From Malacoraja senta (Eukaryota), in NCBI GenBank assembly GCA_038087875.1, contig CM075995.1, positions 3,660,001 through 3,724,000 of the forward strand: 64,000 bases of DNA, written 5' to 3'. The first letter of the stretch is position 1. Each line of letters begins with the position of its first letter. Under the pieces are notes generated by a model. The model had not been told where the DNA came from. It searched no databases and worked only from the letters and a program-made list of their open reading frames with translations. Shown piece by piece: positions 1,801 through 22,177 of the stretch. The position numbers were made by a program, and so were the translations under genes.

Positions 1801-2180
1801 GAGGAGGTAGATGAGACAGGTATTATAACAACATTTAACGTACTTTTGGACAGGTACATGGATACAAAAGGTTTAGAGAGATATGGGGCAAGGTCATAGA
1901 GTCATAGAGTGATACAGTGTGGAAACAGGCCCTTCAGCCCAACTTGCCCATACCGGCCAACATGTCCCAGCTACACTCGTCCCACCTGCCAGCACTCGTC
2001 CATATCCTGCCAAACCTGTCCTATCCATGTAAATCCTATCCTGCTGGGGCTGGTGTAGATGGGGCATCTGGGTCAGCATGGGCAGGTTGAGCCGATCGGC
2101 CTGTTTCTGTGCAGTATGATTCTATGATTATTGTTTCGTTTAGTTGTTGTAAACGTGACACGTTTATTGTCATGTGTACC

Positions 2181-2318
2181 TTCTTCTTCTTTCGTGTGGC
2201 GTGCATAGCCTAAAGTTGTTGGACAACTTGTTCTATTTGATCTTCCGTCTGTGCACGTCGAGTTGATTGCATTAGTCGAAACAAGGCGGACCACGTAAAG
2301 GTTGCAATCTTCCACCCC
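2181..2318 (-). mobile_element. 138-bp non-autonomous retroposon (Ingi/Vingi-like) with a 5' HDV-like ribozyme, copy 1
   Basis: 12-bp TSD GTCATGTGTACC at 2169-2180 and 2319-2330. It has a (GAA)n tail and is homologous to 22031-22166. Confidence 0.85.
2265..2318 (-). ncRNA. Minimal HDV-like self-cleaving ribozyme motif
   Basis: Minus strand reads GGGGTGG-AA-GATTGCA-ACC-TTTACGT-GGT-CCGCCTT-GTTTCGA-CTAA-TGCAATC. This maps to P1/P2/P3/L3/P3'/P1'/mini-P4/J4-2 (catalytic C)/P2'. Confidence 0.75.
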
Positions 2319-2330
2319 GTCATGTGTACC

Positions 2331-6650: not shown

Positions 6651-8179
6651 TTTTACTTCGGAGTCACGTGAGTGATTCCGTGAAGAACCCGGCAGTCCGC
6701 ATGCGTGTCATTACGACTGACGCATGGCGCAACGACCGGCTGGCAGGCACGTTGCTCCTCCCAGCGGGAAGTTTAAACCTGCAGGTAAGTTTTAAACTTA
6801 TTTCCAGGTTCTGTTTTTTCTTGCAAGAAACTCTTCTTACAGAGTTCTTCCTGCTGGATGATTTCGGGGCGAAGTCCGGACGGGCCGCGCGGAAACCGGT
6901 TATGGACCGTGGGGAATCCTGGTCCGGTCCACGGGTAGCCGGCGGCCGTCGGGTTCGCTACCTAAGTCACTAACAATGGGGTCAGCGGCTCCCAGACCGC
7001 AGTGGTTCCCCAGAACGGGGGTAAAGCCAAGGGTAAGTCGGTCTCGCCACCCGAGTCGCTGACAATGGGGTCAGCGGCTCCCAGACCGCTATGGTGCCCC
7101 AGAAAAGGGGTAAAACCAGGAGTAAGTCGGTCAGGCCTTTGGACTCGGACGAGTCGAGCCAGGAGGCTTCCCTCCTTCAATGGATAGCGTCTGCGGACAT
7201 CTAAACCCACATGGACCACCTGATGGAGAAGTTGCTCCACAATGATATACTCCAAAGGAGGGAGTTATCAGCGCGGGTCTCCTCAGGGCCCGCGGCAGCG
7301 GCACCTGTTTCAGGGCTGCACAATGTCTCCCTCTCTGAGGAGGGGAGCATTAGGGGTCAGTTCCTGTCTGACTCAGAGCAAAAATCCTGATATAGGTCCG
7401 TAGGAGGGGCCATAACAGCGCAGATATCCTCAGGGGCCTGCGGCAGCACCTGTTTCAGGGCTGGCTACGAATCTCACTCTCAGTGGAGGGGAGTGCGAGT
7501 GGTCAGTGTGTAACTGACTTCAAATTCAAAAGTATGTCCGCGGAACATACTGGAGCACATGCATATGGCTCCAAGGAAATACTCGCAAATGAAGGGGTTA
7601 CTGCCGGAAGAGTTGGTTATAGCCGTTGGCAGAAAACCCGGAAGGGGCCAGAGTTCCCCTCATGCTACAAGTGCCATTGGAGGCATGAAATCCAGGAAAT
7701 GAAACCAGCCGCCGAATCTTCTCTTCAGGTAAGACTTATCCAACAGGTATACTGGATGAGGAAGCAAAAGCTGTCGGCCTAATCAAGGTACACCCCACGC
7801 CTCATTGGCAGTAAGCAGTTCACTGAAGCTGGTGGCAGCTTGAAAGCTGGGCAGAGGTCTTTCAGGCCAAGGTCCAAGCCGGCCTCAGGAAATATGGAAT
7901 CCACACATCCTACCAGTCCTACTCTCCAATCAAGGACGGGAATAGAACCCACATCAGGGGCCTTTGGGCTTACCATAAGACCACCGGTAACCATGGAGGT
8001 AGGTGGGTCTAGTTCTTCCGAAACATGTGGTATGTGGACCATTTACAAGTTGCTAATATTTACACTTGTTTTTTGTAATGTTAACATGAGATTCAGATCC
8101 GTTTATAAACCAAAATGATAACATGTGATTGGTTTATTTTGCACAGTATACAAGGGTTCCAAGCATGGCTTGGAATTGG

Positions 8180-8431
8180 GGCCAGAGTTGTCTTTCAAGG
8201 CAGGCTCAGTATTACGGCCAGGATTGCCTTCCGAGACAAGCTCGGAAATATGGCCAGAGTTGTCTTTCGAGGCAGGCTCAGAATTATGGCCGGAGTTGTA
8301 GTTCAAGGCAGGCCCAGTATTATGGCCAGAGTTGTCTTTCGAGGCAGGCTCAGTATTATGGCCAGAATTACCTTTCGAGACAGGCTCGGGAATCTGGTCA
8401 GAGTTGTCGTTCGAGGCAGGCACGGAATTAT
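8180..8431 (+). repeat. 36-bp minisatellite, 7 copies, inside the DIRS RT N-terminal region
   Basis: Unit is approximately GGCCAGAGTTGTCTTTCGAGGCAGGCTCAGTATTAT, with an exact 36-bp period and no spacers. Confidence 0.95.
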
Positions 8432-8458
8432 GGCAGGCGTGGCCTGTTCATTGTGAAC

Positions 8459-11668: not shown

Positions 11669-12014
11669 TAACCCCACTGTCTTCTCTTCAGACCGACGTC
11701 ACCCCGATTGTGGCGACTTCATTCGCAGAGCTGGCAATTGTGACTTTGAACGATTTGTCTGCAAGCTTTTTCTCCTGCCCGGATGTTTCCGTGCATTTGG
11801 ATTGAAATGAGAGCAGCACCTCCTCTAGTCCCCTTAAGGAATCCACTGGTGAAATAAATGAAGGAAAAGCATTTTATGCTCTATGATCTTTGGTCTATGA
11901 TCTTTGATCACACACATGCATAGACACAGAGTGAGAGAGGGCAGCAGGCAGACACGCTTGCGTGTGGAGGAATTTTTGTCCTTTCTTTTCAACTTTGAAA
12001 ATTTCCCAAAAGAG

Positions 12015-12169
12015 AGGTGCACCATTCCCAGAGGTACTGCAATACCAGGTCGATGCATGGAGTGGACGGAGCAAGCCCCTATTCCATCTCCCTGTTCCAA
12101 AAATCAGTTTGATATATGGTTCCTAGATAAGGGATGTATCGGATATGACAAGAACTGATAAGAACAGAT
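12015..12169 (-). pseudogene. RNU2: U2 snRNA fragment, nt ~38 to the 3' end, lacking the 5' 37 nt
   Basis: Minus strand reads ATCTGTTCTTATCAGTT...GATTTTTGGAACAGGGAGATGGAATAGGGGCTTGCTCCGTCCACTCCATGCATCGACCTGGTATTGCAGTACCTCTGGGAATGGTGCACC. This matches vertebrate U2, including the Sm site and the two 3' stem-loops. Confidence 0.95.
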
Positions 12170-13685
12170 TTTTATTTTAAAAAATTTCAAAATATACTTT
12201 ATTCAGGTAAAAATATTTACAATACATAGCACTGTTACAAAATTTTGAGATTTTAAAAATAAAGTCTGCAATTTATCCCATCAGATAAAGCATAAAAAGA
12301 AGTTTAATTTGACACCTAATTCACTTTCATATCTTCAGTATTAAAGAAGTTATGGCCATTTTCATACTCGGAAATTAGCATCTTGTTCCCTATTGCTTTT
12401 CCATTGACTTAACACAAAAGCTGTGATCGAGGACAGTTAAAAGCCCATAACTTTCTTAAAAATTAAGAGAACTGAAAGAAATGTTCAGTTATTATAGATT
12501 GAAGCATTCTGAAACAAATATGAAACAATCTTACTTAGAAGACATGAAAGTAAAGCATATAATTAGTTAGTTACCTAATTGTAGCTAATTACAAAATTCA
12601 ATTACTCGATCTAAACATCTATCAATTTCTTAAGGATAGATTAACATTTTTAAATAGCCTAAGTGTCCAAATAACATTCACACAATAATTCACAATATAA
12701 CAATTTTTAAATCTCATTTTCATGAATTTACAGGCCAAATGGAAGGAATTGAATGTTTAATACCTGTAAATTAATGGGGATTTAAATCATCTTGTGAGTG
12801 AGGATTTCTGGAACGCGATCTTTTGGAACGTTCATTTGCGGTGAATTTAACCCCGAATTGGCATGAAAAATACTGCCGTTAATTCGGGGAATAAAATCAC
12901 CGTGTCGCATGAAAAAATGTGAATTAAAGGCTTCTTAAGAAGCACTTTTATACATTTAAAGAAACCACTTTTGTTTACCTGTCCCGTGTGTGAAATCCGT
13001 CCCCGTTATCGGCGTTGACGCTTCAGGAGCTGATTTTAAAATTACTCCAGCGCTGACATTGACGATTTAATAAAAATAAAAAATACACAAAAGGCCACTA
13101 GGAACGATTATTCAGCCAACGCTTGTACTCCAACAAAATATTAACCAGGACAAGGGAGGAGAAACCCGCGTTTTAACCCCGCCCCCCCTTAAAGGCGCCA
13201 AAATCGCGCACACGGCCAGTGGCAGAATTACAGCACGACTGAAGGTAAGTTTTGTAACATACCTACAATACATGAACTGGGTAAAAAATTCATACGACAT
13301 TTTCGGAGGCTATACAAACGTTCAATACTGTTTACACACATTGCACAAATTACACAAATTTAGCCCCCACCCTTGCCACTCATGTGGCCCACTGGCATGG
13401 AATCCCTTCCCTTATTTTTGAGGGGTGTCTCCACCACACCCTGCTCCCCCATGTCCAGCAGCGGAAGGACCCTATACTGTGGTCCTCCCCCACCGAGGCT
13501 TGGTGTTGGCTGCACCAAGCTTCAGTACGTCCCTCAGCACGTACTCCTGCAGTCTGCAGCGGGCCAGTCGGCAACGTTCCCCGACGGACATCTCGCTCCG
13601 CTAGGTGGTCAACAAAGCTCAGGCAGATCAAACAGCGTCTTTCACGGAGTTGATAACCTTCCAGCAGCACTCGATGTCAGTGGAA
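12170..13685 (-). mobile_element. Tx1-clade (Keno-like, U2-targeting) non-LTR retrotransposon, 3' portion
   Basis: 13685-13472 translates as TDIECCWKVINSVKDAV*SA*ALLTT*RSEMSVGERCRLARCRLQEYVLRDVLKLGAANTKPRWGRTTV*. The 3' UTR has AATAAA and an A-rich tail joined to U2 nt 38/39. The UTR is interrupted by the element at 12227-13265. Confidence 0.8.
12227..13265. mobile_element. ~1.04-kb non-autonomous TIR DNA transposon with a 7-bp TSD, copy 1
   Basis: Imperfect 16-bp TIRs TAGCACTGTTACAAAA and TTTTGTAACATACCTA. TSD CAATACA at 12220-12226 and 13266-13272. Homologous along its whole length to 30650-31690. Confidence 0.9.
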
Positions 13686-21642: not shown

Positions 21643-22030
21643 ACCCCCTGCCCAAGTGCCACAGTTGCTGTGCATTATATTTCAATATTTTTATATATTT
21701 TTTCCGCAATTCATTTTCACTGATCCCAATGGAGCTAATTTTCAAAGATGGAGCAGAATGTTTGATTGAATGGCGGAGTAGATTTGATGGGCTGAATTGC
21801 CTAATTCCAGACATTCCTCTCATATCTACCTGACAGACTGCATCATATAAACGCAAAGTGCTGGAGTAACAGCGGGTCAGGCAGTATCTCTGGAGAAAAG
21901 GGATGGATGGGTGATGTCTCGGGTCGGACTTCTTCAGACTGAGAGGGGAGGGAACTGGAGGTAGGGACTGAAAGTCAAGGGGAGGGAACTGGAGGTAGGA
22001 ATGGGAATGGGACCACCATATCTGAGGAAG

Positions 22031-22084
22031 GGGGTGAAAGATTGCAACCTTCACGTGGTCCGCCCTGTTTCGACTAATGCAATC
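22031..22084 (+). ncRNA. Minimal HDV-like self-cleaving ribozyme motif
   Basis: Reads GGGGTGA-AA-GATTGCA-ACC-TTCACGT-GGT-CCGCCCT-GTTTCGA-CTAA-TGCAATC. It has a G1.U wobble at the base of P1 and an L3 fitting UYCHCGY. Confidence 0.78.
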
Positions 22085-22166
22085 AACTCGACGTGCACAA
22101 ACAGAAGATCAAATAGAACAAGTTGTCCTGCAACTTTGGACTGTGCACGCCACACGAAAGAAGAAG
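22031..22166 (+). mobile_element. 136-bp non-autonomous retroposon (Ingi/Vingi-like) with a 5' HDV-like ribozyme, copy 2
   Basis: 11-bp TSD ATCTGAGGAAG at 22020-22030 and 22167-22177. Ends CACACGAAAGAAGAAG. Confidence 0.85.
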
Positions 22167-22177
22167 ATCTGAGGAAG

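Follow-up and report, generated by a model that had tools for sequence, protein, structure and literature searches.

The retroposon described here is probably a non-autonomous element with a P4-less ribozyme-like head, likely freed from host transcripts by its own cleavage and likely copied by the reverse transcriptase (RT) of Vingi-type LINEs. Its first 54 bases are predicted to adopt an HDV-like ribozyme fold in which the P4 stem is replaced by a short linker. All window coordinates refer to the whole stretch of Malacoraja senta DNA that was analysed (64,000 nucleotides of contig CM075995.1), and published work is given by PMC number.

Two copies in the window and their predicted ribozyme head

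The features are listed below; the copies, their duplications, the body and the terminus were read from the sequence.

22031..22166, + strand: copy 1 of the retroposon, subfamily sf1, 136 bp
22020..22030, + strand: left target-site duplication of copy 1, 11 bp
22167..22177, + strand: right target-site duplication of copy 1, 11 bp
2181..2318, - strand: copy 2 of the retroposon, subfamily sf1, 138 bp, with its head at 2318-2265
2319..2330, - strand: 5' target-site duplication of copy 2, 12 bp
2169..2180, - strand: 3' target-site duplication of copy 2, 12 bp
22031..22084, + strand: predicted minimal HDV-like ribozyme (descriptor, covariation with Vingi heads, weak Rfam HDV match of a sister copy)
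22031-22037/22060-22066, + strand: P1, 7 bp, with a G1.T wobble
22040-22046/22078-22084, + strand: P2, 7 bp, preceded by a 2-nt J1/2
22047-22049/22057-22059, + strand: P3, 3 bp
22050-22056, + strand: L3, 7 nt, TTCACGT
22067-22073, + strand: 7-nt linker replacing P4
22074, + strand: predicted catalytic C, in J4/2 CTAA
22085..22149, + strand: body with an inverted repeat (22092-22099/22142-22149) around a small hairpin, also from the fold of a sister copy
22150..22166, + strand: Vingi-type 3' terminus, ACACGA then (AAG)n, a terminus common to families V2, V5 and V8

The two copies are 93% identical across 137 nt and both end in (AAG)n. A preliminary description of this DNA had taken them for independent insertions with duplications of 11 and 12 bp, and both were located with duplications of these lengths; its placements of P1, P2, P3, L3, the 7-nt linker and CTAA were recovered at the same positions. 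The one or two deviations per head that it mentioned are one in copy 1 and two in copy 2, at distinct sites: G7 to A in copy 1, which breaks the last P1 pair, and, in copy 2, C22 to T, which breaks the sole P1.1 pair, together with C35 to T, which leaves a wobble. Most genomic copies are probably decayed, both window copies among them. Past the right duplication of copy 1 the flank resembles what we take, from its repeats and open reading frames (ORFs), to be a CR1 LINE remnant. Elsewhere in the window, a U2 snRNA-like copy with a damaged 5' end (12012-12195, - strand, 97.6 bits) is probably a pseudogene, and 36-bp units form a tandem array at 8124-8440 in which open frames are present.

The elements of a nested double pseudoknot (P1, P2, P3, P1.1 and a G at +1) are all found in the head, with full pairing in the representatives of three subfamilies, P1.1 consisting of a single C-G pair only. 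The U..CG of L3 and the C-N-A-A of J4/2 are likewise present, as TTCACGT and as CTAA or CGAA, respectively. In PMC6326823, U, C and G are fixed in L3 and J4/2 reads C-R-R-A, a consensus from which the CTAA of the element deviates at the second base. With a strict HDV-like descriptor copy 1 was the sole match within the window, and no match was obtained in 150 dinucleotide shuffles of the window, both strands included. Copy 2 fails the descriptor because its C22 is T, and only 45 of 83 distinct genomic copies passed it, despite the 18 head bases that the search pattern had fixed. When one near-consensus copy was compared with Rfam, HDV_ribozyme ranked first and in the right register, with a weak score (21.8 bits for a cut-off of 50, E 0.26). 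Gathering scores were not reached by the element with RF00094 and RF02682 (21.8 of 50 and 16 of 44 bits, respectively), RF00622 gave no match, and all three models include P4; the Rfam scan of the whole window did not report the head. Folding of the single strand with no pseudoknot gave a structure no stabler than those of shuffled sequences (z -0.12), a value that is uninformative for a pseudoknot. Among sf2 copies, decay at the catalytic CpG had changed C44 to T four times and G45 to A ten times, a difference that is not significant, so that this CpG-asymmetry test gave no sign of selection on the catalytic C44 among copies. Absent protection of the catalytic C is what is expected of dead copies and lends the fold no support.

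Family size, subfamilies and 5' ends

An 18-nt head pattern found 7,106 exact matches in the 1.94 Gb genome, with none for the control. The true copy number is higher because only exact matches were counted, and the genome-wide count that had been proposed thus yields a minimum of 7,106 copies, which fall into three subfamilies. The sample studied comprised 90 matches, taken in chromosome order from the first 100 of the list, and 83 of these had distinct flanks: 10 belong to sf1, 52 to sf2 and 15 to sf3, 6 being unclassified. Their median distance from the majority sequence of the subfamily is 3-4%. Target-site duplications of 8-17 bp (mode, 11-12 bp) were found by script in 58 of the 83 copies and went undetected by it in 25. 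Among the 58, 41 begin exactly at the predicted cleavage G1, four are one base short, two are 4-5 bases short and 11 begin with 1-5 additional bases, in agreement with the pile-up of 5' ends at G1 that had been put forward as a check. When the 3' 71 nt alone served as the query, the best-scoring 30 loci (approx. 25 distinct flanks, with a bias towards young copies) all extended to the head; truncated copies exist and are apparently a minority.

Between the subfamilies, three positions of the head and approximately 11 of the body vary. The head changes lie in J1/2, in P1 (T.G versus T-A) and in J4/2 (CTAA versus CGAA), and all are compatible with the fold; covariation within the family is limited to a single change from wobble to Watson-Crick. 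Dispersed copies, variable duplications, a simple-repeat tail and the lack of an ORF are the features of a non-autonomous non-LTR retroposon. A near-identical sequence was also found, as assembled contigs, in public runs labelled as seven organisms, and a scan of metagenomes gave two loci, both devoid of the 5' end. At one locus (L007:1400-1750) a copy is nested in the 3' hairpin region of an older copy, in opposite orientation.

Vingi-type LINEs as candidate partners

Partner LINEs were sought by means of a C-terminal motif of the Ingi/Vingi group. It gave 1,326 matches in the genome (control, 2), from which at least nine families, V1-V9, were distinguished. Their ORFs end in a zinc finger followed by a 3' UTR of only approximately 10-35 nt. 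V1-V6 and V8 terminate, like the element, in CG, 0-5 nt and (AAG)n, V7 in (TAAA)n, and the RTE families of the same genome in GGCTT(AAG)n or GGCAG(TAAG)n. A full-length V2 element measures 3.1 kb, is flanked by a 10-bp duplication and has a head that begins at G1. Intact ORFs of 991 and 986 aa (L344:1403 onward; L404:630-3605, - strand; L387:960-3920) gave only APE and RT matches in Pfam, with no RNase H, and homologues of the Vingi-type ORFs occur in Anolis, sea urchin, lancelet and insects. The layout given for Vingi in PMC13708176 is a single ORF with APE and RT and no RNase H; the partner LINEs fit this definition of the clade, a label that rests on architecture and on the C-terminal motif. 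V2 is a young family (approx. 1.3% pairwise difference), a further family also has an intact ORF, and both are possibly recently active. At the 5' ends of two V2 copies (L362, L363) a 26-nt piece of the head is repeated in tandem approximately four to six times, as if the RT had slipped repeatedly on a folded 5' end.

The body of the element found no match in the sampled Vingi loci, its only matches being other copies of the element; it may stem from an extinct or unsampled family, or the element may be a chimera. What is shared with Vingi 3' ends is the terminal CG-(AAG)n only: sf1 ends in ACACGA(AAG)n, as do V5 and V8, and the terminus of sf2 and sf3 is ACGC(AAG)n as in V1, V3 ending in TCGC. 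The preliminary description had proposed that an Ingi/Vingi-type RT is borrowed through a 3' part of approximately 80 nt that contains a stem. As to the enzyme the proposal gains from the terminus, which is of Vingi and not of RTE type; the route is not supported, in that the part in common with the short Vingi 3' UTRs is the last bases plus the tail, and the remainder of the 80 nt matched no LINE locus.

Pairwise differences amount to 0.057 in sf1 and 0.076 in sf2 and sf3, and to 0.069 in V1, 0.073 in V8, 0.094 in V3, 0.041 in V4 and 0.013 in V2 (2-11 copies per LINE family). The ages of the element and of the LINE families overlap, and no single donor is singled out. V1 and V3, which end in CGC(AAG), are most likely to have been the donors of sf2 and sf3, and a family ending in ACACGA that of sf1. 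The autonomous LINE with both ends of the element, whose existence had been suggested as a check, did not turn up with four patterns that barred the short element and sought a LINE with its head or its tail. These patterns, each approximately 30-40% sensitive by design and thus missing approximately 60-70% of true LINE variants, gave 108, 68, 30 and 20 matches, and those listed or fetched were just deleted, truncated or interrupted copies.

Partner searches with PF14529 led to LINEs that are unrelated to the element and that we presume to be I/Nimb-like and Daphne/CR1-like. The presumed I/Nimb-like LINE has many uninterrupted frames of 1,277 codons (L091, L092 and elsewhere), and the presumably Daphne/CR1-like one (L095, L098, L101) is a young single-ORF LINE that has a 2A-like peptide and is tailed by (CCAAGAA)n. 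At L101 a copy of the latter adjoins a 3' piece of the element, a chance junction that is absent at two other copies. The search with PF20049 led to RTE-A and RTE-B, which were kept only for the alternative discussed below.

HDV-like heads of Vingi elements

An HDV-like fold was found at the 5' end of all Vingi-type families whose 5' end was reached, namely V1, V2, V3, V4, V6, V7, V8, V9 and four families that could not be tied to a tail; V5 was not reached. When the element was compared with seven LINE heads, 138 of the 144 stem cells were paired, with 29 extra pair types. Shuffling of the partners gave 97.6 +/- 4.0 paired cells and reached 138 in none of 20,000 shuffles, a figure that is not a probability because the heads are related. 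In this comparison the P2 register was picked so as to maximize pairing, and V8, Vd, Ve and RTE-B, being damaged or in a different register, were excluded. The pairing conservation that had been named as a check is thus seen across the element and the Vingi heads. Seven of the heads have C-G as their P1.1 pair, and V4 has T-A; the T-A for C-G exchange, observed in L524 and the other V4 loci (L498-L524), is a natural compensatory change in the core.

The closest head is that of V3, which had 11 exact pattern matches in the genome and is identical to the element at 33 of 47 core positions, so that the 5' homology looked for in a bipartite Vingi derivative is found. Twelve of the 14 differences make up six double compensatory changes, one produces a wobble and one lies in L3, and every pair is preserved across the 13 differences located in stems. 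The P4 region spans 42 nt in V3 versus 7 nt in the element. Since the differences from V3 keep every pair and V3 has a long P4, the head of the element is a Vingi head from which P4 was lost and whose sequence drifted. The patterns used, of limited sensitivity, revealed no LINE whose head or body is identical to that of the element.

A second short family and the CPEB3 ribozyme

The Rfam model RF00622, 'Mammalian CPEB3 ribozyme' (cut-off, 35 bits), is matched by V2 heads with up to 64 bits and by other Vingi families with 18-34 bits. A scan of the genome with this model, in which 59 candidates were scored, gave 51 matches, 39 of them at or above the cut-off. Twelve of 20 further matches that were fetched are a second short element (L568-L579, L588-L617) of approximately 135-180 nt, with duplications, an (AAG)n tail and a V2-like head, for which there were at least 1,483 exact pattern matches (control, 0). 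Its 7-nt linker is identical to that of the first family at six of seven positions and C-N-A-A is present; the stems differ from those of the first family and the minimal layout is alike. Of 17 copies with a duplication, 13 begin at the same G. Its P1 is non-canonical, with only 6 bp in 29 of 30 copies, and for this reason the second family is the weaker ribozyme candidate.

Four decayed copies of another head scored 39-51 bits on RF00622. By hand count, three of them match 52 of 67, 54 of 64 and 50 of 58 consensus positions, the P4 stem included; one P2 change is compensated and several other changes correspond to CpG decay. L581, an internally deleted copy between duplications, joins such a head to a 3' part 84-87% identical to V9, and the CPEB3-matching head is therefore assigned to that family:

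L580, L581, L583 and L587 (e.g. G000:C3:83740660-83740738, - strand): V9 heads, identified by their match to RF00622

V9 heads are approximately 78-86% identical to the CPEB3 consensus, including the P4 stem, which is free to vary. V1, V3, V4 and the element agree with it at 21-23 of the first 40 consensus positions, and six nucleotides only are invariant in the HDV-like fold (PMC8256844). Because these other heads match at only 21-23 of 40 positions and the fold fixes only six nucleotides, the identity of V9 with CPEB3 points to common descent. The RF00622 matches of Vingi heads thus point, at the level of sequence, to a Vingi origin of the CPEB3 ribozyme; as to direction, we infer that the single mammalian copy derives from the mobile and diverse Vingi family. 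None of the 51 RF00622 matches (from the 59 scored candidates) lies on the four contigs with CPEB zinc-finger matches. A trace of Vingi, X12_LINE, has been described in the human genome (PMC5753468), and Vingi elements were therefore active in that lineage. Taken as a whole, it is fairly probable that Vingi elements carry HDV-like ribozymes at their 5' end, that at least two tiny families have P4-less versions of it and that the CPEB3 ribozyme is a domesticated Vingi end nearest to that of V9.

Proposed mechanism and alternatives

In the proposed pathway, a source copy that is read through as part of a host transcript would fold its head and cleave before G1; a Vingi protein would then bind the CG-(AAG)n end, nick DNA and reverse-transcribe the RNA. 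Insertion would leave a duplication of 8-17 bp and a new copy beginning at G1. We infer cleavage, the origin of the RNA in read-through transcription and the part played by the Vingi enzyme. Cleavage in vitro has been shown for HDV-like ribozymes without P4 (PMC10879173), for the heads of R2 SIDEs (PMC3414825) and, in trypanosomatids, for those of NARTco and several SIDERs, which are active HDV-like ribozymes (PMC4035085).

The head might instead serve chiefly as a Pol II promoter within the element, as Pr77 does in L1Tc, with a slow or inactive fold inherited from Vingi, or have a dual role. In L1Tc and NARTc a single stretch of 77 nt serves as promoter and as ribozyme (PMC3383444, PMC8256844), P1 of the second family is one pair short, selection on C44 is not seen among copies, and transcription initiation could explain the uniform 5' ends at G1. 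However, a DNA promoter needs no preservation of pairs, so that the stem changes between the element and V3, which keep them, count against this reading, as do the subfamily changes in the head, all of which fit the fold; with these observations it appears rather unlikely. Also improbable, and clearly more so, is that the head is a ribozyme but was derived from an RTE LINE, or that an RTE LINE moves the element. The 5' end of RTE-B has 19 of 21 nt in common with the head, spanning P2, P3 and L3, short copies with internal deletions are numerous in this family, the tail of RTE-A is (AAG)n, and the duplication lengths are similar by eye. RTE-B, however, starts with C, has P1.1 flipped to G-C and agrees at 28 of the 47 core positions versus 33 for V3, and the CG-(AAG)n terminus is absent from both RTE 3' ends. 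In RTE-B (L170, L175-L204; 395 pattern matches) the HDV-like fold starts with C, P2 is bulged, and two pairs are flipped, namely the first of P1 and that of P1.1.

That the element is an ordinary Pol III SINE, its A and B boxes being degenerate and its fold a coincidence, is very improbable, indeed close to refuted. The linker resembles part of a B box, and the best matches have three mismatches for the A box and one for the B box. Yet boxes were matched as well in 585 of 2,000 shuffles, i.e. at the level of chance, as the preliminary description implied in denying the element Pol III boxes; ARAGORN detected no tRNA gene in five loci, and Rfam gave no tRNA, 7SL or 5S match with the near-consensus copy. 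The absence of descriptor matches in shuffles of the window and the homology to Vingi heads also stand against it. In place of the earlier designation as a SINE, a better term, following Kojima's usage (PMC4494074), is non-autonomous LINE derivative.

Comparison with known systems

Ribozyme-headed non-autonomous elements are already known. Ribozyme-headed SINEs in general have been described (PMC6765202), RTE, Ingi, Vingi and R2 all have known derivatives of bipartite type (PMC5786205), and head and tail may come from different elements (PMC3414825). The list of ribozyme-bearing clades in PMC5786205 omits Vingi, and the terms 'origin' and 'transpos' were absent from PMC8233481 in a term search of its available text. 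A literature search based on titles, the beginnings of abstracts and term counts, with Repbase, Dfam and patents outside its scope, found no paper on this element, none that joins CPEB3, HDV-like, ribozyme and Vingi, and none proposing a Vingi origin of the CPEB3 ribozyme. What appears to be new is the combination of a P4-less head on a high-copy animal retroposon, the occurrence of ribozyme-like heads across Vingi families and the link with CPEB3.

If the head cleaves, a P4-less HDV-like ribozyme, a type so far reported nearly always from phages, heads a successful animal retroposon of 136 bases, and a self-trimming head of 54 bases with a short tail would be close to the minimum for a mobile RNA. 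Vingi, which is being developed for gene writing (PMC13708176), would join the ribozyme-headed LINEs, and this could inform the design of templates. The side result may matter more: the match between Vingi and CPEB3 gives a testable origin for the best-known mammalian ribozyme, one that has been linked to memory. The CPEB3 ribozyme and the element have in common G1.U, the L3 sequence and a single C-G in P1.1. They differ in that the element lacks P4 and does not match the model, and in that CPEB3 is a single conserved intronic copy.

The bipartite elements of the Ingi/Vingi group (RIME, NARTc, SIDER and internally deleted derivatives of Vingi-1_EE; PMC5786205, PMC4035085) are, like the present one, short, non-coding, provided with a LINE 5' head and mobilized in trans. 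The element differs from them by a head devoid of P4, a body unmatched in the sampled LINEs and a two-ended parent that was not found. The R2 SIDEs and the R2/R1 hybrid SIDEs of Drosophila (PMC3414825) similarly combine a 5' HDV-like ribozyme with a LINE 3' end; however, these SIDEs are rare and rDNA-specific and keep P4, whereas this family is dispersed in thousands of copies. With regard to the fold, the closest parallel is offered by the minimal HDV-like ribozymes drz-Mtgn/theta (PMC10879173), which lack P4 like the element, are active in vitro and are inactivated by a C to U change. Nearly 99% of them are found in phages, often tied to tRNAs, and the search of human, mouse and protist genomes described there reported no P4-less ribozymes. 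Thus, the drz-Mtgn/theta ribozymes belong mostly to phages, whereas here the corresponding predicted fold heads an animal retroposon.
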